Shown here: in pieces, positions 7,031-37,395 of the stretch | Layout: each line of letters begins with the position of its first letter | Numbering within the stretch: position 1 is the stretch's first letter | Source of the DNA: Giardia intestinalis | Taxonomy: Eukaryota | Strand: one strand, 5' to 3' | DNA: 64,000 nt | NCBI GenBank assembly: GCA_000002435.2 | Contig: CM018793.1 | Program-made: the position numbers and the translations under genes | Notes under the pieces: model-generated | Database searches by the model: none | What the model was told of the DNA's origin: nothing | Seen by the model: the letters and a program-made list of their open reading frames with translations, nothing else

Positions 7031-10000
7031 GTTCTCTAAGGCAACGACTCATGTAGCTAGGTGCTCTCCGCCCGGCCGGCCGACGGGGTACTATTCTAGC
7101 CTGCAGTGGCTAGGGCACGGAGTCTCGGCCGGCTCAAAGTAAAGGTGAGTACGATTCCACTTGAGCACAGAATCCATAGTGAAAGCCTCAGCAAGCGGCA
7201 CACAGCACACGCCGGGATACCATGGTGGTCTGGCTTTCAGGCTCGCTGCCTCAACTGGTGGGTTGCGGTTTTAGGAGATCGCCAACATTAGCGCAGAGGT
7301 TCTGTAGCGCGACTTTACACCGATTAGTATATAAGCGTGAAGAGCCATATGTTACCTCACGTCGTGGAGTAACTAAGCGGGCAGTTCGAGAGCAATACAC
7401 CGTGACTTGGGATGCATTGCGGCTTTTCTACGCCTCATATCACAATGCCCAGAGCACATAGGTGTCGATGCTTTGCTTACAGACACAAGGGGTCTGTTGC
7501 AGAATTCATCAGCATATCTGGCTTCATCTTCCGTAACTTTGTTCTGTCCTGAAAAGAGAGCAATCCTAGGGACTTGAGATCATTGCAGCGTGGCCACTTC
7601 CATGCAAACATACTTCCAGAAGCGCTGCTCCTTAACGAGTAGTCGCAATTTGCGATGTGATGGGTGGCCGTGGCGCAGACAGGCTCTGCTACCGCCGCGC
7701 CATAGAGCAGGTTGGAATGATCGGCATTACCGGCGATTTCTAGTAGCCTTCTCGCCGCATGCAGAGGCGCCGACCTGTGGACTGGGCACCTATTAAGGTT
7801 AATAAGATTAAAACGTGGCCTCTCAGGGATGCGGAGAAAGGACAGAAGGGGAAAAGGCGAACAACTGAGGCGCCGGGAGTCGAACCCGGGTCGTGACTCA
7901 ACAACCGGAAACCGGCCAAATATGTCAAGTGTCAGTATGCTCCCGCTGCACCACGCCCCACAGCGAGCGGCCGATGATAATGAAGGCTAGTTCTTTATTA
8001 TAAAAGGTTTACTCTCTCTGTTTCATTGGGGTGAGGTTGTCACCTGCTGTCTGAGTGTGATCTTCCCGTGCAAGCCACCACCACCTTAGGCAAGCAGGCC
8101 TTTGCTTGCTTCCAGCCAAGACCTGAACCCAGAGTTCAGAAATCAGACGTCGTCCAGTTCCGGCGGGAGAAGAAGCCCAAACAGAAAGCTGACGGCCCCG
8201 ATGTCCAGTCCCCAGTAAGCAATAAATCCGCGACTGCTCCCATGAGGCGCCACTGAGGAAGGTCCCTAGGACCCTGGAGCGAAACGCCAAGAAAGCGCCC
8301 AGCAACGTGAACGAAGAGGCCAGGAGACGAGAGTAAGGGAACTCCCACATTCTCTTCCCCCCACCGAACCTCCCTGTGTCAAAGAACGATTGCGTGGTGG
8401 CAAGGCTCTCAATGACCGTTTCTCCAGGAGACCACCTGGCCCCGACAGGGTCAATCACTGACTATACGAACTGGCTCACGAATGTCGGAGTTCACTTACG
8501 GGCCTGTACCCTTGAGGACCTCCTACATCATCCACAGCACGAGGAGCCACTCGGCCACTTCTGCGTCTCCTATCACGCCTCCTTCGACTCTCGAAGGGCC
8601 TCGAGCAACACGTTTGGGAAACCCTCTCCGTCTGAGCTCCTTCTGCAGCCTTGCGACAGACAGACGGTGCCAGCCCACGCACCAGGTCTCGGCGCCCGAG
8701 CGCGGTGTCCCGCGTGGGCCCTCACCATTGCCTGCCATGATGCCCCGGACAGAAAGCATCGGACCGGAGCGCTTCCCAGACTCCTCGGAGGCGCTCAGGG
8801 ACGACCCCAACTATCTGCCAGGACAGGCCAAGTCTGTGCGGTTGAGAGACCAGCAACACCAGAGCGCCCTTGAGTTGTTCGCGGCCCGGTGGAGCCAGGC
8901 CAGCCCTAGCCTCAAACAGGGGTCCCAGTCGCTGGCTATCCCCAGAGGGTCGTGGAACCTGCAGAACTCTACAAGGGAGACGTCGCCCCGGACACGCACC
9001 AGTGCACCGTGAACCCCACCCCTCAAGAGGGATAGATCAGGTATCACAGCGAGAACGAGGACCTTAGGAACCTGACGGAGAGGAGCACTCTGCGCTGGAG
9101 CGGCACCGGGCGAACGCCAAAGTAGTAGGAGCGGAAGAGCACGTGCCTGTCCTGCGCGAAGACCCTCCGCGGCGAGGCCGTCCAGACGCACTACAGCACA
9201 GACACCGGATGTAGGGTGCTACTGAGTGGGGCAACGGGGATAGAGAAGGACGTCCTCTTCAGCACCCGTCGTGCGAACGTGCTCAGGGGAGGGTACCTAC
9301 CACCCCGCAGAGCTCCAGTCGAGAGCCGAGGAGACGCGCCTCGCTCACACAGCGGGGAAGCGGAGGAGCGGCATTCACCATCCTACTGCCCGGCCTGCAG
9401 CCTCTGCCTCGCCTCGAGGGGGAGCTGCACCCTGACAGCGCCACCGACGACCAGCACCTTGCTATCCAGAGGGCCGGATCAGGACGGCCTGGCCCCTGAG
9501 AGACAAGAGCCCCCTCAGCCATCGGAGAGCACGGACGGCCAGTCCGCGGGGCTCGAAGTCCCCGGGCCTGCGCTGGCGAGTCCATCCGGGTGCAGGCGTT
9601 CCGGGGCCCCTAAACAGGCCTTCAACGAGATCCTCAGTGCGATCCATAGGATGGGATGCGTGCTCCGTACGGTTCCGCCTGGCCCTTCCCCAAGAATGGG
9701 ACAGGACAACCACGATCAGCAGACGATCATGATTCGCTTCACAAGGTAGTCCCGAGCCGCTTGGAGACCCAGACCCTGGCCTTCCTCGAGACCTAGCAGA
9801 CTGCGTTCCACTGGATGTACATGGGCGGCGTTCGCACGGTGCAGGGAGACGCAGACTGATGGGCACAGCGGTCTTGCTCGACATAACGAGAGCCCCAACA
9901 GCAGACGGCCTCGCCCAGGCAAGTGTACCCCTCATCCCGAGGAGCTGCGTCGAGGCCTTCCTTCGGCCGCGACACACGAGGTATCTGGACTCGGTCCCTC

Positions 10001-21179: not shown

Positions 21180-22340
21180 ATGATTGACATCCAGGCAAAG
21201 ATTCGACACCAGGCACTCAGCAACGCTGCCGCGCTCAAAGAGGTCGGGGAATTTGTTGAGCGTATCTCCAAGAAGGACGAGGAAGCCACACACGCTGCCG
21301 CCACATTTGATCCATCGACCGTTAAAGTGCCCCCCATCCGGTGCTATGAGATTCCACTTGAGGAAGAAAAATCGGGGCTGTACACCGCTGAAGAGTATAA
21401 GGCTGTTGGTAACAAGCTGTTTGGAGAGCGCAAGTTTGAGAAGGCATTGGACTACTACGAGTGTGCCGGACGCATAGACCCAGGTATGGCGGCTGCCTTT
21501 GGGAATGCAGGCCTCTGCTACCAAAAGCTTAAGCGCGAAGATGAGGCCCTTGCCTCCTTCTCACGAGCTATAGGGATAGACCCTCAATATACGAAGATAC
21601 TCGTAAGACGTGGACGTCTGTATCTAGATCGAGGAGACTACCAAGCCTCATACGCCGACCTGTCCTTGGCACTCACTCTCCTTCCTGAGAAGGGGCGACA
21701 GGAGGTGCAGCAGGACTTAGAGCTTGTTAAATCAAAGTTAGTACCGGTGACTACTGTCACTACTACCACTGTAGGAGCAGCCGATATATTTGCTACTCAA
21801 AACACAGCAAGCAGAGGGAAATCCATCGCCATAGACATGAGCTGTCTCGATGAGGCGGTCGAGTCAAAGTCTCCCATAGGCTCTCCGTCACGCCCAACAG
21901 CCGTTCGGTTACGAGATTGCAAGAGAAACATCCCTTCCAACAAAGCCAAGCCTTCCGTTCCTCCTCCACCAACTTCAGCATTTTCTTTGTATAGCGACGT
22001 GCTTCATCTAAGTGAGCACTTGGACGTCTTGGCAGAATATCTTAACTCCTTCCACAGTGCGGTATTAGAATCTTACCTGTCAAGCCAGTTGACTGATAAG
22101 GAAATCAAGAGCATCGTGGCTGCCATTGGCCTACACAAGCTTTCCGCAAAGAAAACCATCAATACCCTTTATGCACTGACTCGCTTACCAAATCTCTCCT
22201 TCCTAAGCCCCTTTTTGTCAGAGGAGATAAAAACGACCATGCGTGCTACTCTTGAGTGGGCATTGCATCAGATTCCAGAGGACCAGGCTGAAGTATATAA
22301 TGAGAGAAACGATGAGGTGCGCGAGGCCTTTTGTCTCTAG
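21180..22340 (+). CDS. TPR-repeat protein
   Basis: At least three consecutive tetratricopeptide repeats are present: AEEYKAVGNKLFGERKFEKALDYYECAGRIDP, AAAFGNAGLCYQKLKREDEALASFSRAIGIDP and YTKILVRRGRLYLDRGDYQASYADLSLALTLLP. Confidence 0.7.
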   Translation: MIDIQAKIRHQALSNAAALKEVGEFVERISKKDEEATHAAATFDPSTVKVPPIRCYEIPLEEEKSGLYTAEEYKAVGNKLFGERKFEKALDYYECAGRIDPGMAAAFGNAGLCYQKLKREDEALASFSRAIGIDPQYTKILVRRGRLYLDRGDYQASYADLSLALTLLPEKGRQEVQQDLELVKSKLVPVTTVTTTTVGAADIFATQNTASRGKSIAIDMSCLDEAVESKSPIGSPSRPTAVRLRDCKRNIPSNKAKPSVPPPPTSAFSLYSDVLHLSEHLDVLAEYLNSFHSAVLESYLSSQLTDKEIKSIVAAIGLHKLSAKKTINTLYALTRLPNLSFLSPFLSEEIKTTMRATLEWALHQIPEDQAEVYNERNDEVREAFCL

Positions 22341-22535: not shown

Positions 22536-23663
22536 TCAATACACATCAACGTCCATCTGCTGACGTCGGATGTTGGCAGCTGCATCTTTGATTAGAGAAG
22601 GTGGTAAACTGATCCCCTTCGCCTTAAGCATTTGGCGAAGCTCGGTGACCTCTATTTTAGGATGCTCAGCTAAGATAGCTGCGATTGTTGAGTGCATTTC
22701 GGGGGAAACAACCTTCTTGGATCTCCGCCCCCTCGGCCCCACCTCAAGCTGACCACAATCTCGGAACTTTCTAACGATGTTTATTGCTGCACTATACTTT
22801 AGGTTGAGTTGCTTCACTGCTGATTGCACGTTCATCCCATCAATGCACACCATGTGAATAAGCCGCTCACGCGTTTCCTGGGGTATGATTAAATACTCTC
22901 TTTTGTTGCTAGCTGATCTCCCTCGTTGAGGGATATGAATAGAATGATCTTCAGGGCCAAGCTCACTAATGCTTAGTTGGTCATGTTCGTGGATTTGATT
23001 CTGGTTATAATCTTGGTGACCGTTGTTCTCTTCTGGCATGGTGTTGATCCCTAAAGTGAGGCTAAGCTTAGGATCAGAAGCCGGTCCATGATCATGAGGC
23101 AGGTCAGGGTCGTGGACAAGAGTGATAGTATTATCGGGAGCCGAGTTAGAATCGGAGCCGAGGCTAGTGCCAATCCGCTGCTCAACGTGCTTAACTATGC
23201 CTTGCTGATTTTGGCCAGGACCCAGATTGGCGGGTGGCATGAAGTCATCTCTGAAGAGCTGCCCATTGTCGACTTGCGGTAGCTCAAAGACATGATCCAT
23301 GTCTGGTCTATAGAATGTACAGCCCATGCTCCTTTTCCCGCTGCTGCTAGATAGCGATACATTAATCGATGGTGGGTCATTCAACCCTATTCGACTGGCC
23401 TTCAGAGAAGATGAATGCGAGCTAGGAGTGCTGCCATTTGAGCCTATATCTTTAAAAACAGGTAACATGTCACCATCTCCAGGGATAGCTGAGATGGTGG
23501 ATCGCCGCAAATTCCGAGCGGATGTGATAAGCCCCGGGGGCAACTGTCTAAACAATGGGGAGGTTAATTCCCGACTAAGCTCGGTCATCAGGTCTGTACC
23601 GCTTCCTGAGAAGACAGGAGCATGCTCATCATACTCGGACATTGGCAATGTATAGGTGAGCAA
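22536..23663 (-). CDS. DNA-binding protein with a C-terminal paired / Tc1-like bipartite HTH domain. It may be a Pax-like factor or a transposase-derived protein, and it has no DDE catalytic domain.
   Basis: The C-terminal ~110 aa read ETRERLIHMVCIDGMNVQSAVKQLNLKYSAAINIVRKFRDCGQLEVGPRGRRSKKVVSPEMHSTIAAILAEHPKIEVTELRQMLKAKG. This follows the PAI/RED paired-domain and Tc1-transposase N-terminal pattern R.RIV...G.S...IS..L.VS...V.KI..R..ETG...P...GG.KP.V.TP.....I......P..T..E....L. The N-terminal 250 aa are low-complexity and Ser-rich. Confidence 0.55.
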   Translation of the reverse strand: MLTYTLPMSEYDEHAPVFSGSGTDLMTELSRELTSPLFRQLPPGLITSARNLRRSTISAIPGDGDMLPVFKDIGSNGSTPSSHSSSLKASRIGLNDPPSINVSLSSSSGKRSMGCTFYRPDMDHVFELPQVDNGQLFRDDFMPPANLGPGQNQQGIVKHVEQRIGTSLGSDSNSAPDNTITLVHDPDLPHDHGPASDPKLSLTLGINTMPEENNGHQDYNQNQIHEHDQLSISELGPEDHSIHIPQRGRSASNKREYLIIPQETRERLIHMVCIDGMNVQSAVKQLNLKYSAAINIVRKFRDCGQLEVGPRGRRSKKVVSPEMHSTIAAILAEHPKIEVTELRQMLKAKGISLPPSLIKDAAANIRRQQMDVDVY

Positions 23664-23745: not shown

Positions 23746-24462
23746 TTAGATAAAAGATCCAGGAGTACTGAGCAGGGACGTACCTTCAGGTTGGAGGATG
23801 CCCGAGTTTGGTTTTATGGGCGCGGAGGATCTCTTTTGCCTTTTAATGAGGAAATAGAAAGCCAGAGTTGTCATAACTGCACAGAGAAGTACGGTGACTA
23901 TCACTGAGATGGCTACGGCTGCGCCTGCCGAAAGACACTTATCAGAATTTCCAAAACCTGCACAGATGCAATCTCCATAGGCCATAGTCCACCCATTCTT
24001 GCATGATACGCAGTGTTCTCGCTCTCTGTCGTACGAGTCGTTATATCGAAAGCACATTCCTCGACTCAGAGATCGATAGCAGCCGTTCCCGATTTTCTGA
24101 TACCCTTTGCTACAATCGTGACACGTTGGGACAATCTGGTCTCCCTCATGCTTAAGGTTGCAGTTTCCAAATTCAAACTGCTTCCAGCAACTTTTATCTA
24201 TAAGGACGTGGTCGTTCGTGCAAGCCGTACATCTGATTTCCTCGTCATTATAATGAAAGCAATTCTCGTTGAAGCAATATGTGCATGTAGGGTAGCACAA
24301 TCTGTCCGCGTCAGTGTCTTGGGGATTCACGTAGGGCGTGTATCCTACCTGGCACGTGCAAGCGTCTGTACCCGCACCAGTTATGCAAGGAGCGGGATCA
24401 GTTGCACCTTTAAATCTATATGGCAGAAGCCACAGTGTAGCTGCAACTAGAGTAGCAGCCAT
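23746..24462 (-). CDS. Cysteine-rich type I membrane protein resembling a high-cysteine membrane protein, with EGF/furin-like repeats
   Basis: It has an N-terminal signal peptide (MAATLVAATLWLLPYRFKGA) and ~30 Cys residues with many CxxC/CxC spacings. A C-terminal TM helix (AAVAISVIVTVLLCAVMTTLAFYFLI) follows, then a basic cytoplasmic tail (KRQKR...). Confidence 0.6.
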   Translation of the reverse strand: MAATLVAATLWLLPYRFKGATDPAPCITGAGTDACTCQVGYTPYVNPQDTDADRLCYPTCTYCFNENCFHYNDEEIRCTACTNDHVLIDKSCWKQFEFGNCNLKHEGDQIVPTCHDCSKGYQKIGNGCYRSLSRGMCFRYNDSYDREREHCVSCKNGWTMAYGDCICAGFGNSDKCLSAGAAVAISVIVTVLLCAVMTTLAFYFLIKRQKRSSAPIKPNSGILQPEGTSLLSTPGSFI

Positions 24463-24602: not shown

Positions 24603-25652
24603 TTACATCATCCTTTTAGCGGCTTCAGCTATGTTTTCTAGACAGGGTCTTTCCGCTGGGTCTATAGATAGACAGGCGTTTAAGACGTGCCTCAATTCAT
24701 CACTAAATTGGCTCTGTGACTGTTGCATCACGTTCGGGCTACCATTATTAGATGGAATCTGCTTCGTAGGAAGCCTTGTAGGAAGTTCGATGGGCCTGGG
24801 AAGACGTGTTATGCTTAAGTAGAGGTCTATTTCGCGTCCTGTGGTAAATGGGCGCTTCTTGAAGATCAGCTCGTACAAGTAGCAGCCAAGGGCCCATATA
24901 TCGCCCGACAGAAGAGTATTTGTCGCTCCAGGGACGCTGTCACCGTTGCTGTTGGTTTCAAGTTGCTCGGGCGCCTTGTACAAGTCTATGGCTACGGATA
25001 TGTGCAGATTTAGGGGTGCGGTTATTTTCAGCTCTGACGACATCCCCACATCCATGAGCTTCACACTCCCATCTTTGTCCAGGTATATGTTTTCGGGCTT
25101 AAGAGAGGCATGTGCCACAGGGCCCCTACCAAGGGGGTTTCCGTGCAAATATCTGAGCGCGGACACTATCTGACTCAAGGTCTTCCATATCATGGACTCA
25201 GTCATGGGCTCGTGGCTTCCAGAAGCACCCATGCTCTCTCTCAAGCTGGGACGGGCCTCATCACGCGAAACTAGCTCTCTAGCGTCCCCGAGGAGAGGGG
25301 AGATAATGTACAATCGAAGGATAGTTGAATCATATATGGCATCGATGGGCGAATTGATGTTTGGATGGCATAGCTGCAGCTGGATACTCGCACACTCAAG
25401 GAGCTGCTTTTGATGAGGCTCAGTATACATGTCACAAGGTATTTCTTTGCATGCAAAAACCGTTTTGGTATTTTTCTTACGAACGACATATACGCGGCCG
25501 TGTGGACCCAGGCCCACCGAGGCTGACATTATGAAGTACGTTTTTGTCTCATCACTATAAGGGTTTAGTTTGACAGTCTTTTCAACAGGGATTTCCTCTT
25601 TATCATAATACTCAGCCAGGCTACCACTCCTAATCCCCGCGGGAAACGCCAT
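24603..25652 (-). CDS. Protein-kinase-fold protein, predicted pseudokinase
   Basis: The kinase fold is recognisable through VFACKEI (VAIK Lys), a catalytic loop LKPENIYLD, YKAPE and DIWALGCYLYELIF. However HRD is replaced by HAS, so the catalytic Asp is lost, and DFG is replaced by DVG. Confidence 0.75.
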   Translation of the reverse strand: MAFPAGIRSGSLAEYYDKEEIPVEKTVKLNPYSDETKTYFIMSASVGLGPHGRVYVVRKKNTKTVFACKEIPCDMYTEPHQKQLLECASIQLQLCHPNINSPIDAIYDSTILRLYIISPLLGDARELVSRDEARPSLRESMGASGSHEPMTESMIWKTLSQIVSALRYLHGNPLGRGPVAHASLKPENIYLDKDGSVKLMDVGMSSELKITAPLNLHISVAIDLYKAPEQLETNSNGDSVPGATNTLLSGDIWALGCYLYELIFKKRPFTTGREIDLYLSITRLPRPIELPTRLPTKQIPSNNGSPNVMQQSQSQFSDELRHVLNACLSIDPAERPCLENIAEAAKRMM

Positions 25653-26877: not shown

Positions 26878-29800
26878 TTATGTTGTCAAGAGAACATCTA
26901 AGAAAAACCTCGCTCCATATTCCTCGAGCTGCTCTCGGAGTGGCTTACTATTGGATTTTAGATCTCTATGTTGCGATAGAATAGATAATACATTGTTGAT
27001 ATGGCAGCCCCGGATGTAACTCAGCCCTGCCATGATCACGTCAGCCATTCTCTTGTACGCGCCCTTAAATCCGGTGCTACGATAGATGATGTCAAGCAAG
27101 GATTGAGCCAGATAATCGGCTGACCTTTGGGAGATAACTGCGGTATCGACTACGGCAATGTGCACTAGAGCGACGCGGGTAAACGTTAGAATGTTGATAA
27201 ACCCATGAGACGTGGGTGGGAATATCTGGAGAACTCGCCGGGCCACATAGAGTGCTTTTACGAGTAGGCCTGCTCGAGCATACGCCTCCAGCAGCACGGA
27301 GCAAACAAGCTTAGAGGGCAAGAGCGTTGCGTCGGAGCGCATGTATTGAATGCTTAATATCGAAATGCTGTCAAAGTCGGGAAGGGACTCCTTGTAGATT
27401 GCCTTGGCACCCTTGCTAGTAAAGGGAGTGGATTCAGAGTCGTCAGTGGGAGCCCCCTCTGACTTCTGTGTAGAGATAAAGGTAATGTTGTCCTTTTCAA
27501 GCAGTTCCGCCTCATTTCTAATTCTGAAATACTTGCAGCAGCACGCAATCACAAAGATGCATACATTGAATACGCATTCCTTTATAGCCACCATGTTGTT
27601 GTAAGCGACCTGGCACTCAAAGGCCAGCGTTTCCAGCTCACTAGCATTTCTGAAGGAGAGGAAAGCACTGGTCGCATAGAGGCACAGAGCGAGAGGCTGC
27701 GATATAACATTCTCTACCACATCGCTGGATAGGAGATAGATCGTCTGTTTGTACGAAATAAGGTGAGCACGCACGGTTTGATCAATGTGGGGAAGAATGT
27801 GTATTGACGTTAGCTCAAAGATGTAAGATAGTAGAGGAGGAATAAAGTTGTAACTCTGTAACGACCTCTCCGCAGAGCCCATTGTTTTTTGAGACTTTGT
27901 TTCTTCTAGCTGCAGCATCTCTGCAACGGCCTTCACAATGTGGAACATTGCGGCCTTGGGGAGCTCGTGAATGTAACTTGGAGCAATAGCTGCAAGAATC
28001 CCTATCATGGCAATTCCCTCAATTGTTGTCCCATACAAGAGGCACCGCTCCACCATAGCTGCTGCCAGTGACAAGTACAGCTCCGTTAAGTCCCGTAAGA
28101 AAAGCGCATAAAAGATAAGGAAGAGGAGCTTTTGGATGGATCTCTCCAGCAACGATGCCCTCTTCATATATTGCATAAGCGCATAGGGGGTCGAGGGAGA
28201 CTTCAGTGAGTCAAAAGCAACCATGATTGCAGCCTGTGGATGCGGCTTCAGTCCATTACCCTCAACAAGATTGGTAGTGAAGAGAAGAGAGAGGGTCGCA
28301 ACAATAGTGTCCCGGTGAATGCTTTTATTCATGGTTATCATAGGTAGGAAAGCGTTGATGTGCGCCTCATCTCCAAGCAACTTCTGCAGCATTGAGACAG
28401 CGATTGAGACAGCCCGCGCCGGCTTGTTACTCTGTATCATGCCCAGTGTCCACTCCCATATAAGTCCCAGCCAGTAATGCTTGTACACCTCATTTGATAG
28501 TTTGTCGGTTACATATGTGGACTGCACCAGATTGTATCTTGTGGTGAAGCGGATTGACTGTACCGAATAGCAGATGCTGTTTGCACATGTAAAGTTAAAT
28601 AGCAAGGGAAATGCATTGTACAACGCGGTAAGTTCAGAATCGGTACCGACCTGTATGGTCTCATTATACATTGTGTCAATCATGTCTGTCGGATCCGTCC
28701 CATTGGGGTCTGACTTTGAAACCAGGCTTTGGAGCGCATTTGGTTTACCAGGCAGAGCATCTGCATTGCCACTGGTAATGGGAGAGCTGTGGGCACTGTT
28801 AGGGTTTGAGAGTACACCTATGGTACACTTGAGTAGCGAGTCTAGGTCAAGGGAATTAGCAGTTTTGAACGTCAGCAGGGGCCTCTTCTGGGCAACAACC
28901 TTATAGTTCGACAGGGACCAGTTCTGCCTTTCCATTGGATTGAGACATAGCATGGCCATAGCAGTCCAGATTTCGTGCTCAGCTGACTTTGCCATTGAAA
29001 GGTATTTGCTGATGTCAGCAAAGCTCTTAGAGAGGATGTCGCATGCATATGTGTTTAGTCTCAGAAGTTCATACTGGTCATAAATGTCGAGCAATTTGCT
29101 TGCACACGGATTGAGGCACTTCAGAAGCTTGGTTATGTCCACAAAAAGTCCATCATATTGCTCTAGGAGACATGCCCGTGTGCTTGGTGTTCTGAGGTCG
29201 GCTTCCATTTGCTTAAGAAAAGCCTCTTGCTGTTGCCAGTTGTTTACCCCCATGTTATGGTCAAAAAAGAAGGTCTTGTGAGTGCGCAAAGCAATCCGTA
29301 ATGAAAGAGAGGCCTTGTTAATCTGAAGATCATTTAATGAAACATCTGCCGCCTTACCCGAAGCCCTCAATAGAGAAACAAAGTCCAAGTGGAGCTTTCT
29401 GATTAGTTCTCCCGTCTCCAGCTCTCTGGGATCATAGTTTCTTATATAGAGGGACGGCTTAAGGTCGGATTTTCTCTCCAAAACAGAGTCCCGTGCAATC
29501 CACCTCTTCCGAAGATATAGTGCGATCAGGAATAGCTTTTGGCTCATGCCAGATGTAAATGACTCTTCCAGAACCTTGCATAGACTGATATTATTAAACA
29601 GAAAAATGTAGCCTATCCGATTTGTAGATTTGTTAGGATTGTAGGGATTGTGGGCTAGGTCCACGCCATGGTCTGCACCTCCTTGTGCATAAAGCGGATG
29701 CCTAAGCTGTACAAATTGTGGGGCGCAAGAAATTAGATGCATATTAGAAAGCTCAGTGAGAGACGTGAGGATCACATCGTCGTTACTGTAATTGAGGGCA

Positions 29801-32598
29801 CTTGTAAGCCAGCGCATGTCGAAAATAGTGCCAAAGACAGACGATGCGCAAAGTATACCCATGTCCCCGTCCGATAGCTTCTTAGAGTTTCTCAAACCAA
29901 GAAAGCGTCTTAAGATAACCTGATCTATGTCAGGAATCGCGTCTAGAGCAGTCTTGCTATAGCGCGCTTGCGAGCCTGTGATGCCAGAAATACCATACAG
30001 CGTCAGAATCAGCAATTTGATGTTGAGCATTATTGACCCTGATTTCCTCAAGATCTGCTCCACCAAGTCCACCGTATTAACAGATGGGAGTCCTCCCTTT
30101 CCTTCTGGGCCATCTGGCGATAACATGAGGGACTTCAATATAAAGGTTTGTGCCATGTCATCTGGAACTTGATCCAGTAAGATGTAAGACGGGTTAAGCA
30201 AGCGTTTGACTGCTAAGTTGAAGCTGTATGGCCGGGCAAATAGGTCTTTAATCTTTAGCTCTTGGTTGGAATTGCGTGCAGAAGCAGAATATCCTTGAAC
30301 ATAGCTTTGCTTTATACCAGAAGAGAGAACCGATGCCCCTGAGGCGCTGTTGACGCTAGTTGATGAGCGTGCGTCATCAACTGTCGACTGAGCCTGCGTC
30401 TTGGTACTAGCTTGATGAGTGGGAGACTCTTTGGATAGCACCTTGAAGGACGATAAGATCTTTTTTGCTCTGCTGTACTGCTTGCCAGAAACAGGAGAGA
30501 CAGCATCATCCTTTGTATTCGGCGCAGAGTCAGGTGTTCCAGTCCATGAAAAGCTCTCGGGATATATGCAAGGGGAAAGAGACTCACTTAAAATGACATA
30601 AAATCTATCAACATTGAGATTGCCTACGAAAGAATAAAATCTTTTGATGAAGTCCTTACTGCACTCAGAGACTAGGTCGTCGAGAACAAGGACAAAGACA
30701 GATGCACGGGTAAGCACAGAGCGAACCAAAATCCCAAAGACGGACTCATAGTAATCTATGGAGACAGCAGTTTTAATATCATCTAGCTTCCCGCGTATGT
30801 TCATTGCTGCAGCCAGAGATGGTAGAACAAAGGGTAACTTAGCTAGTATACTGGGATTCATCTTTTCTCCGATGCTACTGAGCAAGGGCTTGTCATCTAA
30901 CCTAGCGATATACCTAGCAAGATAGAGATCTATCAAATGAAACTCACCGTCGAACTCAATGTACGAGTGTGTGAGCTTGCACTTTATATCATCTTCTGTG
31001 AGATACAACATGGGCGACAATTCTGGGCCTGAAATACAAGACAGCACATCACCATTATCCTCTGTTTGTATGTGACTTTCAAATCGCTTCAGTTGCTCGG
31101 GTGTTTCAATTTCTTGCATACTTTTAGGCAACTCCCTAATCAGGTGTGAAGTTGTGTGACACATTCTGTAGTAGGTAGCATCGCATGTGTAAAGGTTGCG
31201 CTCATCATCAAACGCAAAAGAGCTAGAGATTTGCTTGAAAGGCACATAAAGGCAGAAGCCGAGCAGGCTATCTCTGACTATACGCATTAGGTCCCCAAGC
31301 AACACAGACCTGCCAGATCCCCGTAGGCCAGCCAAGCAGCAAATCTTTTTCAGAGGTCGAGCTGCACACTGGGTCTTAGTTGAAGAATAGGCAAATAAGT
31401 TTTGCTGAAGGGCCGGAGTCTCCTTTTTTATATTTTCGAACGCTAACATTGCTTTTCTAGTGGCTAAAATGTCATATATCTCTGGAAGCTCTACCGAATA
31501 ATGGGACGCCGTATAGCACTCGACTACATAGTTAGTATCTGTCTTGAAAAGAGCTCGACGAAATTCAACCGGAAAAGTCTCTGAAATGTTCTTCAGTATT
31601 GCTTGAATGTGTATGTCATTGAATGAGAGCCGTATGGAGAGCATTCTCTTCACCATCACCTCAGAGGATAGAGGGTTTATGGGCATGTTCTTAGGTAAGG
31701 ATGCCTCGAGAAGCATTGCTGGGTTTGCGTTGACCGCCTTCCAATAATTCAAAATGTCAGTGTGAGCCTCTGCTGCAGAAAGATAGATCCGAGACTCTGA
31801 AAGGCACAGCAGGCGTAAGATAAACTCGTTGCAGAATGGACCCAAGCTGTACTGCTGGAGCTTCTTGAGCGCGTCCTCCCTTGCTCGTCTCCACCCCGGT
31901 TCTGCGTCATGATATTTCAGTGAGAACGGGGAGGGTGGACACTCTTGCGTGAGAAGCTTGTAGAGGAAAAACCCCATTTGGTAAAGGTCTGTAAGTGGGC
32001 TAAACCTGAGGTTGAAGCGAACGCGCTCTGTGGGTGTAATAGCCAGGAACTTTCGCAGCTCAGTAAGGTGTACAACGAAACTTCCTGTTTGAAGAAAGGA
32101 CTCTGAAAGAGGAGGAGCATACATAATTATGTCATGGAAATCTGCGGAATTAAACCGTGGTGGAATGTAGGAATGAAGCGCTGTTTCGAAGTCAGGGGTT
32201 GTTTTGATGATTCCGTATGATGCCACCAACATTTTGTTATCACAGGAGTCAAGGAAGACAGATTCTGATGTTATGTTTCTGTGTAGCGTGTTTATTGAGT
32301 GTATCTTAGCCAGTATTTCAAGGCATGCGATGGCAAGGACCACAAGCTGCCCGGGTTTGCGAGACCACGAGTCTGGAGTAAAGTGGGAGATTGGTCTACC
32401 AGGCGTAGAGATAGAGCGAATGAAGATAACGTCCCCAGACCTCTCCAAGTAGTCTGGGATAATCACTCCATTCTGGCCACGGAGGATAACCCTCTGCATT
32501 TCGAGTGAATGGTAATAGGCATCGGCGTGCTCATCGGCCCATCCGAGCGTAAGAACCGAAGTTTCAATACACACGCGCGGCTGTGACCTTACAGCCAT
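26878..32598 (-). CDS. Giant protein (1906 aa). It has an N-terminal pseudokinase domain, a degenerate P-loop/Walker-like segment and a long alpha-helical (TPR/HEAT-like) region.
   Basis: This is one continuous 5.7 kb ORF. At aa ~55-225 there is a kinase-like region with IHSINTLHRNITSESVFLD (HRD replaced by HRN), VASYG in place of DFG, and DLYQMGFFLYKLLTQECPP (subdomain IX). At aa ~424-431 the motif GLRGSGRS resembles a Walker A with Lys replaced by Arg. At aa ~633-642 the motif VFVLVLDDLV resembles a Walker B. The remainder is leucine-rich and helical. Confidence 0.7.
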   Translation of the reverse strand: MAVRSQPRVCIETSVLTLGWADEHADAYYHSLEMQRVILRGQNGVIIPDYLERSGDVIFIRSISTPGRPISHFTPDSWSRKPGQLVVLAIACLEILAKIHSINTLHRNITSESVFLDSCDNKMLVASYGIIKTTPDFETALHSYIPPRFNSADFHDIIMYAPPLSESFLQTGSFVVHLTELRKFLAITPTERVRFNLRFSPLTDLYQMGFFLYKLLTQECPPSPFSLKYHDAEPGWRRAREDALKKLQQYSLGPFCNEFILRLLCLSESRIYLSAAEAHTDILNYWKAVNANPAMLLEASLPKNMPINPLSSEVMVKRMLSIRLSFNDIHIQAILKNISETFPVEFRRALFKTDTNYVVECYTASHYSVELPEIYDILATRKAMLAFENIKKETPALQQNLFAYSSTKTQCAARPLKKICCLAGLRGSGRSVLLGDLMRIVRDSLLGFCLYVPFKQISSSFAFDDERNLYTCDATYYRMCHTTSHLIRELPKSMQEIETPEQLKRFESHIQTEDNGDVLSCISGPELSPMLYLTEDDIKCKLTHSYIEFDGEFHLIDLYLARYIARLDDKPLLSSIGEKMNPSILAKLPFVLPSLAAAMNIRGKLDDIKTAVSIDYYESVFGILVRSVLTRASVFVLVLDDLVSECSKDFIKRFYSFVGNLNVDRFYVILSESLSPCIYPESFSWTGTPDSAPNTKDDAVSPVSGKQYSRAKKILSSFKVLSKESPTHQASTKTQAQSTVDDARSSTSVNSASGASVLSSGIKQSYVQGYSASARNSNQELKIKDLFARPYSFNLAVKRLLNPSYILLDQVPDDMAQTFILKSLMLSPDGPEGKGGLPSVNTVDLVEQILRKSGSIMLNIKLLILTLYGISGITGSQARYSKTALDAIPDIDQVILRRFLGLRNSKKLSDGDMGILCASSVFGTIFDMRWLTSALNYSNDDVILTSLTELSNMHLISCAPQFVQLRHPLYAQGGADHGVDLAHNPYNPNKSTNRIGYIFLFNNISLCKVLEESFTSGMSQKLFLIALYLRKRWIARDSVLERKSDLKPSLYIRNYDPRELETGELIRKLHLDFVSLLRASGKAADVSLNDLQINKASLSLRIALRTHKTFFFDHNMGVNNWQQQEAFLKQMEADLRTPSTRACLLEQYDGLFVDITKLLKCLNPCASKLLDIYDQYELLRLNTYACDILSKSFADISKYLSMAKSAEHEIWTAMAMLCLNPMERQNWSLSNYKVVAQKRPLLTFKTANSLDLDSLLKCTIGVLSNPNSAHSSPITSGNADALPGKPNALQSLVSKSDPNGTDPTDMIDTMYNETIQVGTDSELTALYNAFPLLFNFTCANSICYSVQSIRFTTRYNLVQSTYVTDKLSNEVYKHYWLGLIWEWTLGMIQSNKPARAVSIAVSMLQKLLGDEAHINAFLPMITMNKSIHRDTIVATLSLLFTTNLVEGNGLKPHPQAAIMVAFDSLKSPSTPYALMQYMKRASLLERSIQKLLFLIFYALFLRDLTELYLSLAAAMVERCLLYGTTIEGIAMIGILAAIAPSYIHELPKAAMFHIVKAVAEMLQLEETKSQKTMGSAERSLQSYNFIPPLLSYIFELTSIHILPHIDQTVRAHLISYKQTIYLLSSDVVENVISQPLALCLYATSAFLSFRNASELETLAFECQVAYNNMVAIKECVFNVCIFVIACCCKYFRIRNEAELLEKDNITFISTQKSEGAPTDDSESTPFTSKGAKAIYKESLPDFDSISILSIQYMRSDATLLPSKLVCSVLLEAYARAGLLVKALYVARRVLQIFPPTSHGFINILTFTRVALVHIAVVDTAVISQRSADYLAQSLLDIIYRSTGFKGAYKRMADVIMAGLSYIRGCHINNVLSILSQHRDLKSNSKPLREQLEEYGARFFLDVLLTT

Positions 32599-32609
32599 TG
32601 GTTTTAAAT

Positions 32610-34457
32610 TTACTGTGTTTTTTGTATCGATAGATTTTGATCTGCAAAGAGGAGATCGTCGTCCATTGTTTCGAGCATGGCGTGGATATCATCAATGGAA
32701 AAGAGATTTTCTATTCCCAGCTCTTTAATATCAGTAGCAACTTCTGCAAGGGAGCCCTTTGAAAGGCGTTCCATTAGGAGATAGACCTTCGATCCTTCTG
32801 CTTCTCTCAGAAGCGGACTATTTTGCGCATTCTTCTCCCACAGATGTTCAGCATAGGGCCTGGCCTCCAGTATACGATAGTCTAGAGCATGGGATATGGC
32901 TAACCCCAGGTCGACATAGTTCATTTTCATGCACTGGTAGTAGGTGTTGTGGAGAATGGTCACCCCTAGATCGGCAAGTTCTTTGTAGGTACTCTTGTAA
33001 ATGCAGAGGCCCAGCTGTACTGCGCATTCCAATCGATCAACCTTAATCAACAACTTTGCAATCCACTCTGTTGCACGCAGCAGAGGCACAGAAAGCTTTA
33101 GGCTATTGTTGTCAAGAAGAGTTGGCTCTACTGCAGCAGCGTCACGGATGTGCTCAAGGCTAGAAAGTAGTGCTTGTCCCAGTGTGACAATCTGCTGCTC
33201 CAGAATATCTGGCAAGCCGTCCGTAAAGATAGACAAGGCATTGCTCCCAATTGTGTCTTTCCAAATGCCAACTAAGATGTCTAGGCTGTCATCCTGGAAC
33301 CTTAGCGGTATATCCTTTGGCTTTCTAGTCTCCAATCTGTTTGCGAGCTCCCGGGCAGCAAGGATAAATGAGTCTGCGTTTTGGACAGTGAACGCAAGGG
33401 CGTGATTGGGATTCGCTGAGAGGATATGATGTAAGAAAAGGGTGTGCTGGTTCAGGTGCTCCGAAAGTCGTATAAACAGGGGCAATGCCCGCTCAAATAT
33501 TATCACCAAGTGACCAGCTAGCAAGAGGATACGGAAGACAACTGGTGTGATAGATAGTAATCTCTTGAGGTCAAGAAGTGCGCTTTCAGGGTGAATGGGT
33601 ATAGGGCACAGTCCTACATCATAGAGGCATATCTTTCCGCTCGTGGTACTCATAACCACGATACCCAGCTCTGACGATACAGCACAGCAAGTTGGGATAT
33701 CTCCACTCAACAGTGCTTGATCAGCAGCGTCTGTCCAGGTATGTTTGACGTGAAGATTAGCTAACGGAATAGTTACCTCCTTCCCACGATCATCCACACC
33801 ATTCCAATGGGCGAAGAGGCTAGATATCGACCCGAGGATTAAGGTTCCAGTCCTGTCTATGGCAACAAAGTGGTGCATGCTTGCTGTAGCATAAACGGGA
33901 GAACTTGCCAGTTCAATAGCGAATTGAGAGCAAACAGTATTAGAAGGAGTGATAGTTCGCTTGATAGATATAACAAGGCGGGACGGCTGAAACTTTCGTA
34001 CGAAAAATGTGATCAACATACTCTCTAGTAGCACAGATTCTATAAGAACGGTGTCGCTAGGAAGGTCTAGGGAGGCGACCACAGCAGTTTCTCCGTTAGA
34101 GCTACCCCTGTGAGCCTCTATCAGATTTTCACTTCTAACGTAGTGCAAAGGAAGGGCATGGAGAGGTATTTCACTGATCATCTCGAGGCTGGCAACCTCC
34201 TGCAGAAATAGGGTACGCAAATCAAACATAAAAGCGTGTGACCGAGAAAACCCCACAACAAAGTAATAATCGCCAGCAGCATGTGCAAACACTGGACACG
34301 ATGTAAGTGCGACGCGGAAGAAAGGCATATATAGTTCAGGCAGGGGTCGTTTGAGAAGCTCATGTGGGCGTAGCAGAGCAGAAGGCTCACACGTATCACT
34401 GAGGTACAAAAGTTTAGAGAAAGGAGCGTCAAGGGGGTTATGTTCAAAGGAGCGCAT
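32610..34457 (-). CDS. Hypothetical protein (615 aa)
   Basis: This is a long ORF. Its stop codon lies only 11 nt upstream of the next gene's ATG. No domain was recognised. It could carry an N-terminal beta-rich and a C-terminal helical region. Confidence 0.5.
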   Translation of the reverse strand: MRSFEHNPLDAPFSKLLYLSDTCEPSALLRPHELLKRPLPELYMPFFRVALTSCPVFAHAAGDYYFVVGFSRSHAFMFDLRTLFLQEVASLEMISEIPLHALPLHYVRSENLIEAHRGSSNGETAVVASLDLPSDTVLIESVLLESMLITFFVRKFQPSRLVISIKRTITPSNTVCSQFAIELASSPVYATASMHHFVAIDRTGTLILGSISSLFAHWNGVDDRGKEVTIPLANLHVKHTWTDAADQALLSGDIPTCCAVSSELGIVVMSTTSGKICLYDVGLCPIPIHPESALLDLKRLLSITPVVFRILLLAGHLVIIFERALPLFIRLSEHLNQHTLFLHHILSANPNHALAFTVQNADSFILAARELANRLETRKPKDIPLRFQDDSLDILVGIWKDTIGSNALSIFTDGLPDILEQQIVTLGQALLSSLEHIRDAAAVEPTLLDNNSLKLSVPLLRATEWIAKLLIKVDRLECAVQLGLCIYKSTYKELADLGVTILHNTYYQCMKMNYVDLGLAISHALDYRILEARPYAEHLWEKNAQNSPLLREAEGSKVYLLMERLSKGSLAEVATDIKELGIENLFSIDDIHAMLETMDDDLLFADQNLSIQKTQ

Positions 34458-35878: not shown

Positions 35879-36913
<1,035 letters not shown>

Positions 36914-37395
36914 TTAAGTTTTTTCACTCAGAATACTTTGGACATTCAGGTGGCTTTAGAAAAGATTAGCAGGAGTAAGTTCCCAGGAATACAAGGCTGC
37001 AGACCGGATTTACCTCACTTTGAAGGCTCATTAGCAATGATCAATTTCCATCATCTGTAAATTTTAAGGTAGATCAATCTTTCTTAAGGACTGCACCGAA
37101 CAGATGGTGACCTACAGATCAGCTCATGGGTCTTCAGGCTTCAATGTCACTCTTTCGGCTTTTCATTTACATTTTAGGCAGCCTCTGGATCTTTAGAGCT
37201 GTCCTTGATGTGTCAAAAGCGTTTCAGGACAGAAGTAACGATAGGCCTACCTGACACAACAGCTTAGAAAGAGTGGAGCAAGCAGCCACATTCGACAGAC
37301 GATTATTTAAGTGCGAGGGGAGTAGCGAGGCATTGTTCTTAGAAGTTTGTTCAGTAAATTGCATGGAACATACATGAAGGTAAGTTAATTGTTTG

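Follow-up and report, generated by a model that had tools for sequence, protein, structure and literature searches.

The 64,000-nt window of the Giardia intestinalis genome analyzed here (assembly GCA_000002435.2, contig CM018793.1) contains a complete open reading frame (ORF) at 26878..32598 (-), which encodes 1906 amino acids (aa) followed by a stop codon. The predicted protein is residue-for-residue identical to G. intestinalis WB GL50803_0017527 (GL50803_17527; XP_001705039.1; UniProt A8BSN9), which is labelled "hypothetical protein"; some of its orthologues carry the automatic UniRef name "Protein kinase domain-containing protein". Profile comparisons and structural models reveal three modules in the order dead kinase fold, P-loop domain of AAA_16 type and ~900 aa of helices. 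The reading we favor, and regard as reasonably probable, is that GL50803_17527 is a single-copy, diplomonad-specific signaling ATPase of the STAND class which carries a degenerate kinase as its N-terminal "effector". It is plausibly an uncharacterized signaling hub rather than a new kind of system: the kinase-STAND module is well known in bacteria, and what is new is its eukaryotic, diplomonad-specific, degenerate and output-less variant. A preliminary description made from the sequence alone had proposed a catalytically dead kinase, a speculative NTPase and a TPR-like helical region in a layout like that of PknK and other STAND regulators, and all the motifs it quoted were recovered at their places in the translated ORF. 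No publication was found under the gene ID or the UniProt accession, nor for STAND in combination with Giardia, and the gene is absent from the 2011 Giardia kinome tables.

The first start codon of the ORF is an ATG, separated from the stop codon of the upstream gene (32610-32612) by an AT-rich intergenic spacer of 11 nt (32599..32609, -). The AT-rich AAATTTAAAACC lies directly 5' of the ATG and runs into this spacer; it may be a Giardia-type initiator. Due to the upstream stop codon, the N-terminus cannot be extended in that direction. The same start point is shared by all nine diplomonad sequences used to assess conservation, which are 18-40% identical overall and six of which form the Giardia clade. 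The short N-terminus is therefore real.

The pseudokinase domain (residues ~1-290; 31729..32598, -) is delineated by hhalign, Foldseek, PADLOC, a match to VRK3 and its conservation. Compared on its own (residues 1-300) with the bacterial kinase domain in hhalign, it matches over residues ~19-290 at 99.3% (E 6e-21). The PADLOC kinase model MkoA matches the same domain (E 9e-7), and a Foldseek search with an AlphaFold model of residues 1-740 (mean predicted local distance difference test, pLDDT, of 54) returned only protein kinases at the top, with E values down to 4e-5 and template modelling (TM) scores of ~0.45-0.5 for this low-confidence model. The kinase fold claimed in the preliminary description is thus supported by these comparisons. 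Searches against the PDB gave marginal kinase matches with phmmer (E 0.14) and, with a profile, a best sequence match of the catalytic-loop segment to the human pseudokinase VRK3 (E 0.0045). Single-sequence scans of Pfam and NCBIfam yielded AAA_16, Bud32 and MAD6, all below threshold.

By its motifs, the kinase domain is catalytically dead, as had been described. The catalytic-loop remnant LHRNITSESVFLD (residues 105-117) reads HRN instead of HRD (residues 106-108; 32275..32283, -). R107 is the only one of these three residues that is invariant across the nine sequences, the corresponding triplets being LRQ in Hexamita and VRG in Spironucleus, and the position of the catalytic Asn is occupied by Ser113 in the Giardia-clade sequences. 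Further on, VASYG (residues 125-129) provides SYG instead of DFG (residues 127-129; 32212..32220, -), with loss of the Mg-binding Asp; the position reads S/T-Y-G across the orthologues, where Y128 is invariant in all nine and G129 only in the six of the Giardia clade. The subdomain-IX-like segment DLYQMGFFLYKLL (residues 204-216) begins with DLYQMG (residues 204-209) and retains D204, the subdomain IX Asp, without exception. The N-lobe is cut down to approximately one strand, helix C and β4-5, while the C-lobe is complete. Only 18 residues precede the segment equivalent to helix C, versus 47 in the bacterial relatives, and the region of the Gly-rich loop and the VAIK Lys is therefore missing; in total, about the first 30 residues of a normal N-lobe are lacking, including the Gly-rich loop, most of β1-3 and the VAIK Lys.

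The pseudokinase is the best-conserved region of the protein, with identities of 50% to G. muris, 44% and 39% to the relatives P0006 and P0007, 28% to Hexamita and 24% to Spironucleus, which argues for a retained non-catalytic role. The same strong conservation, together with the invariance of H106 in the Giardia clade and of R107 throughout, would also be expected of an atypical but active kinase with relocated catalytic residues, like WNK and some other "pseudokinases". Such an enzyme is, however, extremely unlikely here: the N-lobe lacks ~30 residues, with no room to place the start codon farther upstream; other residues stand where the catalytic Asp, the catalytic Asn and the DFG Asp would be; and the HRN triplet itself is lost in the Hexamitinae. 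Human VRK3 likewise keeps a kinase fold without catalytic residues, and its HGNVTAENIFVD...LAGYG can be set beside HRNITSESVFLD...ASYG of the Giardia protein. VRK3 differs in having a full N-lobe and no NTPase fusion, and the similarity is short and probably reflects convergent degeneration.

A poorly conserved helical linker (residues 291-414; 31357..31728, -) connects the pseudokinase to a P-loop NTPase core of AAA_16/STAND type (residues ~415-680; 30559..31356, -). The core contains a Walker A motif, GLRGSGRS, with Arg430 for the canonical Lys (residues 424-431; 31306..31329, -), and a Walker B motif, VFVLVLDD (residues 634-641, within VFVLVLDDLV at 634-643; 30676..30699, -). Both had been noted as Walker-like and both align with the corresponding motifs of AAA_16. 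They are followed by the strand RFYVILSE (residues 665-672; 30583..30606, -) with the invariant residues R665 and E672. This strand may be sensor-1-like, since visual inspection pairs it with the bacterial "AYRDNE" strand immediately past the point where the hhalign alignment stops.

When residues 400-690 were compared in isolation with the AAA_16 segment of bona fide members, hhalign gave 95.3% (E 2e-8). As kinase and NTPase were tested separately, this assignment is independent of the kinase match. Sub-threshold Pfam AAA_16 matches occur in five of the six Giardia-clade orthologues scanned (best E 3.7e-4), and the Spironucleus protein matches ATPase_2 (E 4.8e-5) in scans of Pfam and NCBIfam. 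A profile search of the PDB returned only P-loop-local matches for the NTPase, to UvrA and a helicase loader (E 0.06-0.2). In the model of residues 1-740 and in a second AlphaFold model covering residues 395-1594 (mean pLDDT 48), residues 419-425 and 635-640 form strands flanked by helices, so that a beta-loop-helix...strand-helix-strand arrangement surrounds Walker A and B; the predicted beta-alpha-beta core reaches pLDDT values of 76-89 for residues 534-674. The distance between Walker A and Walker B, 210 aa here versus ~125 aa in the bacterial relatives, is accounted for by a helical insertion that is normal for AAA_16 and by a Giardia-specific insert at residues ~478-532, which adds ~40 aa. 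A P-loop NTPase domain of AAA_16/STAND type is accordingly supported by these alignments, and an assignment that began as speculative now stands on firmer ground. Neither the lack of a P-loop fold nor that of a kinase fold, either of which would have spoken against the preliminary description, was observed.

Across the nine diplomonad sequences, no variation is seen at G424, G429, D640, D641, R665 or E672. The Walker A pattern GxxGxG[KR][ST] is found in eight of the nine lineages, and the remaining one, P0007 with GKKLGGKT, still fits GxxxxGK[ST]. The Walker A Lys is present in five of the nine lineages (Hexamita, Spironucleus, P0006, P0007 and P0002, the last 84% identical), and Arg in the strains WB, DH and P15, in P0003, in P0004 and in G. 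muris. From this distribution, Lys is probably ancestral and Arg lineage-specific rather than a feature of the family. The codon for Arg430 is AGG (window 31309-31311), so that Lys and Arg are one A/G transition apart; because close lineages differ by just this transition, the sequences suggest either recurrent change or reversion at a normally immutable Walker A residue which toggles between close relatives.

These substitutions bear on the main alternative, unlikely but still credible, in which neither kinase nor NTPase is more than a relic and the protein forms a static helical scaffold whose P-loop region keeps its fold but does not switch. Walker A carries Arg in the G. intestinalis A/E-type sequences, P0003, P0004 and G. 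muris, and large lineage-specific inserts interrupt the NTPase domain. In conservation, the core also falls behind both the pseudokinase and the helical regions, with 32% identity to G. muris as against 50% for the pseudokinase, and with identities of 20% to P0006, 25% to P0007 and 21% each to Hexamita and Spironucleus. A decayed domain would, however, hardly be expected to keep the Walker A glycines and [ST], the Walker B DD and R665 in all diplomonads over a deep divergence. Moreover, the Arg stays basic and Lys persists or reappears in close relatives (P0002), which looks like constraint rather than decay.

A word-indexed search recovered only Giardia orthologues, with 81-85% identity in other assemblages, 39% in G. 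muris and 29% in the relative P0006. An exhaustive hidden Markov model (HMM) search of 1.8 billion representatives, for which the N-terminal 740 aa served as the profile, added three orthologues: a metagenomic protein of 2104 aa and those of Hexamita inflata (1429 aa) and Spironucleus salmonicida (1464 aa). In the libraries searched, orthologues are confined to diplomonads, namely G. muris, Hexamita, Spironucleus and two environmental relatives, and no Giardia paralogue was found by either search. Within these libraries, the family is thus a single-copy one limited to diplomonads, which answers the need for an orthologue search raised in the preliminary description. The P0006 orthologue (29% identical, Ala/Gly-rich; run SRR31929897) derives from a GC-rich Giardia-like diplomonad and lies on an 83-kb contig, where it adjoins genes for proteins of 7055 aa and >2767 aa.

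Beyond the orthologues, the exhaustive search returned 20 further proteins at E <= 1e-3. Seven of them begin with a canonical Pkinase domain at ~10-260, and a strong Pfam AAA_16 match at ~300-490 comes immediately after it. One of the seven is a 444-aa fragment; the other six are 1700-2150 aa long and continue with a helical region of ~800 aa, a GAF domain and an output module: GGDEF, a class III cyclase or a histidine kinase, the last of which may or may not carry a receiver. These closest relatives outside the diplomonads agree with the STAND/PknK-like layout proposed earlier. A search seeded with them revealed a very large family, whose members at E <= 1e-50 number at least 8000. Filamentous cyanobacteria are the source of most of them, and the names given are "AAA family ATPase", "hybrid sensor histidine kinase/response regulator" and "serine/threonine protein kinase". 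In the helical region, some members have Pfam TPR matches, and one bacterial example sits in a compact gene context of bacterial type next to a tandem paralogue. The bacterial proteins correspond to what Krupa and Srinivasan called "dual protein kinases" (PMC1262709), and they belong with PknK among the STAND kinases, whose building plan comprises a NOD made up of a nucleotide-binding domain, a helical domain and a winged-helix domain (NBD-HD-WHD) together with a sensor and an effector (PMC4381067).

Aligned with hhalign, the six full-length Giardia-clade orthologues match six of the bacterial proteins at 99.2% (E 7e-20) over 421 columns, which cover the stretch between kinase helix C and Walker B, Walker A included. 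The full diplomonad profile and a profile of 66 bacterial sequences form one collinear alignment of 583 columns that extends through the segment after the NTPase (E 7e-19). In these alignments, homology of the kinase and the NTPase to the N-terminal portion of these bacterial sensors, and collinearity with it, are established. The likeness comprises an N-terminal kinase fold directly before AAA_16, collinearity over at least 420-580 columns, a total length of ~1700-2100 aa and a long helical region after the NTPase. The bacterial Pkinase-AAA_16-TPR-GAF-output sensors, in contrast, carry an intact kinase domain (Pkinase E 1e-33 to 1e-43), a Walker A Lys and a C-terminal GAF domain with an enzymatic output, whereas the Giardia protein has a truncated dead kinase, a Walker A Arg and two large inserts, with no GAF or output domain detected.

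The second of these inserts, a Ser-rich segment of very low pLDDT (residues 681-790, 22% Ser; 30229..30558, -), parts the R665 strand from the next predicted strand (residues 804-808). Its serine cluster RSSTSVNSASGASVLS (residues 738-765; window 30304-30387) contains S748, S751 and S759, which are invariant in all nine sequences; the insert around the cluster is otherwise fast-evolving and disordered, and the cluster is likely a regulatory phosphorylation patch. Downstream lie a candidate fifth strand, a helical domain and a winged-helix region (residues ~791-1000; 29599..30228, -), which appear in the model as helix-helix-strand-strand elements at low pLDDT. Here, SYILLDQVPDDMAQTF, RKSGSIMLNIKLL and LSDGDMGILCASSVFGTIFD stand opposite the bacterial "I.L.nL...dv.qL", "KT.GNPFF" and "LP.etq.vL.lAAciG..Fd". 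Residues ~791-960 align collinearly with the bacterial segment right after AAA_16 at hhalign E values of 8e-4 to 1e-2, versus 0.09-0.27 for a reversed-template control, a result which is only suggestive of helical-domain and winged-helix homology.

The C-terminal region (residues ~1001-1906, ~900 aa; 26881..29598, -) is predicted to be all-helical in the part covered by the model, up to residue 1594, with low-complexity breaks at ~1271-1325 and ~1701-1735. A motif LN.C....DI(Y/F)DQ.E.(L/M).LN (residues 1162-1182) is strongly conserved in diplomonads, and the stretch LNPC....DIYDQYELLRLN (residues 1160-1185; window 29044-29121) is near-invariant in all diplomonad orthologues, where the surrounding helices diverge. 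Its counterpart in a weak alignment (E 0.4-0.5) is the "HLN...LN..A" with which the bacterial TPR-like region begins. Residues ~1385-1553 align with the bacterial helical region at E 4e-3 to 0.15, against the same reversed-template control values (0.09-0.27), so that homology of the tail is likewise only suggestive. The preliminary description was right in predicting a long helical region, but its TPR-like character was not borne out, since no orthologue scanned matches any Pfam TPR family and no internal repeat was detected. No GAF or output domain was found by Pfam, and hhalign of residues 1560-1906 against the bacterial family gave nothing (E 0.86).

Several observations weigh against reading GL50803_17527 as a STAND-class switch. 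Taken singly, no sequence of the family reaches the Pfam gathering score of either Pkinase or AAA_16: GL50803_17527 scores 15.3 bits (E 0.029) for AAA_16 (PF13191), where the gathering threshold is 32.6 bits, and the homology is visible only in profile-profile comparison. The Arg in place of the Walker A Lys may impair hydrolysis and perhaps nucleotide binding. Confidence is low for either AlphaFold model (mean pLDDT 54 and 48), and a Foldseek search of the 395-1594 model (NTPase and helical region) against the PDB returned nothing at E <= 1e-3, the proteins named for this model (Pex1, Cdc6, RFC, SSO1545 and BrxC) all being non-significant. After the NTPase, the Pro of the segment equivalent to "GxP" is absent, the sequence there reading RKSGS, and the predicted homology of the helical domain, the winged helix and the tail is weak (E 1e-3 to 1e-2 versus ~0.1 for the control). 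The 66-sequence cyanobacterial profile brought no gain for the isolated matches of the NTPase, the helical-domain/winged-helix segment or the tail, and split the NTPase match into a Walker A piece (E 5e-5) and a Walker B piece (E 5e-3). Finally, a self-comparison of residues 1000-1906 showed no internal repeats.

The low Pfam score and the lack of a significant Foldseek match for the second model could also mean that a helical protein happens to match the P-loop and Walker B motifs and that its kinase-like domain alone is real. Yet the NTPase alone was matched by hhalign, it is collinear with the kinase match and follows it at the correct spacing, the motif residues are invariant, and the beta-alpha-beta core is predicted with pLDDT values of 76-89. 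Chance matches are thus very improbable.

Under the favored reading of a STAND-class ATPase, the helical C-terminal region would hold the NOD, with its nucleotide-binding domain, closed until a ligand or partner binds, as in the STAND scheme (PMC4381067). Binding would then lead to nucleotide exchange and multimerization, and the latter would cluster the dead kinase domains into an array. Because the dead domain cannot phosphorylate, the clustered kinases would have no phosphotransferase role and would instead form a docking or allosteric platform for partner proteins. The Ser-rich insert in the ATPase module, with its invariant serine cluster, could be a site of regulatory phosphorylation. 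MalT and other STAND/AAA_16 regulators offer a comparison in which inducer and oligomerization are known; the effector of MalT is, however, a C-terminal DNA-binding domain, and there is no kinase-like domain. PknK of Mycobacterium tuberculosis is described as a kinase and is much shorter than the Giardia protein. By description, it too combines an N-terminal kinase, a STAND NTPase and a helical C-terminus without a GAF or output domain (PMC4381067; PMC1262709). Its layout, with a C-terminal region like that of MalT, is the simplest version of the kinase-STAND plan, and the two proteins are likened by layout and not by sequence.

An N-terminal effector, a NOD and a C-terminal helical sensor also make up the layout of NLR and Avs proteins, and the best library matches of the kinase domain include the defense kinases MkoA, PD-T4-6 and MAD6. 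GL50803_17527 might accordingly be an NLR-like surveillance receptor, modelled on fungal NLRs, bacterial Avs or kinase-based defense proteins, whose helical region senses a molecule of a pathogen or of stress (e.g., Giardiavirus) and whose kinase-like domain triggers a response. We consider this quite improbable. Immune receptors are fast-evolving and expanded, whereas this gene occurs in a single copy and has a 1:1 orthologue in every diplomonad sampled, and its putative sensor is 44-50% identical to that of G. muris, as high as the kinase. Furthermore, the PADLOC and NCBIfam matches are generic to the kinase domain and lie far below the family cut-offs.

Other known pseudokinase and kinase architectures were considered and rejected. 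Vps15/PIK3R4-type scaffolds have an N-myristoylated Gly2, a HEAT region and a C-terminal WD40 propeller; the Giardia sequence starts with MAVR, has no Pfam match to WD40 or HEAT and is all-helical in its tail up to residue 1594. Vps15, ULK4/Fused, SCYL and ROCO-type proteins are likewise disfavored by the lack of WD40, HEAT/ARM, Roc and COR matches, and the exhaustive search brought up none of these proteins. Membership of the Giardia Nek expansion is disfavored since the protein does not appear in published kinome tables and the kinases closest to it are of bacterial type and linked to AAA_16.

The origin of the protein may be framed more specifically. A sensor of the cyanobacterial Pkinase-AAA_16-TPR type could have been transferred laterally to a diplomonad ancestor and could then have lost its kinase chemistry and its output, leaving a nucleotide-gated, oligomerizing hub with a dead-kinase signaling surface. 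This scenario is put forward tentatively, and we regard it as doubtful.

Several other features of the window were observed. Two genes downstream of GL50803_17527, the 349-aa product of 24603-25652 (-) contains a complete Pkinase domain (Pfam E 5e-33) and is presumably one among the many stand-alone, Nek-like kinases of Giardia; no relation to GL50803_17527 has been established. A 386-aa protein at 21180-22340 (+) combines TPR repeats with an RPAP3_C domain, an architecture like that of RPAP3/Tah1 (R2TP co-chaperone). The 375-aa ORF at 22536-23663 (-), listed with a TTG start, has weak C-terminal matches to PAX/homeodomain-like helix-turn-helix domains (E 2e-4, below cut-off), and the 238-aa Cys-rich protein at 23746-24462 (-) has a C-terminal hydrophobic segment and no Pfam match; by eye, it resembles the cysteine-rich membrane proteins of Giardia. 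From reading its sequence (INGFGRIGR..., SNASCTTNC), the 336-aa ORF at 35879-36889 (-) resembles glyceraldehyde-3-phosphate dehydrogenase, and the plus-strand ORFs of 282 and 235 aa antisense to it, in the region 36069-37060 (+), are probably spurious. Two 2-kb blocks, 1-2000 and 8001-10000, have a G+C content of 62-64%, versus 44-52% in the rest of the window.

The signaling repertoire of Giardia is reduced and divergent, and most of its large proteins are unannotated. The analysis provides a domain assignment for one of these, a conserved 1906-aa "hypothetical protein", and shows that a lineage of eukaryotic parasites, too, possesses the kinase-STAND module so abundant in bacteria, albeit doubly degenerate. 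Provided that its NTPase is still a working switch, the protein would offer a handle on how a pseudokinase is deployed by oligomerization. It would also be a parasite-specific drug target, given that the exhaustive search detected no homologue beyond diplomonads and bacteria-type sensors. If it is a scaffold only, it would be nothing out of the ordinary, a lineage-specific structural protein whose evolutionary history is interesting. Should the hub derived by lateral transfer prove true, it would be the first STAND/NLR-like switch described in Metamonada, and the Walker A toggle of Lys and Arg between Giardia lineages would signal that switching once driven by hydrolysis has come to rely on binding only.

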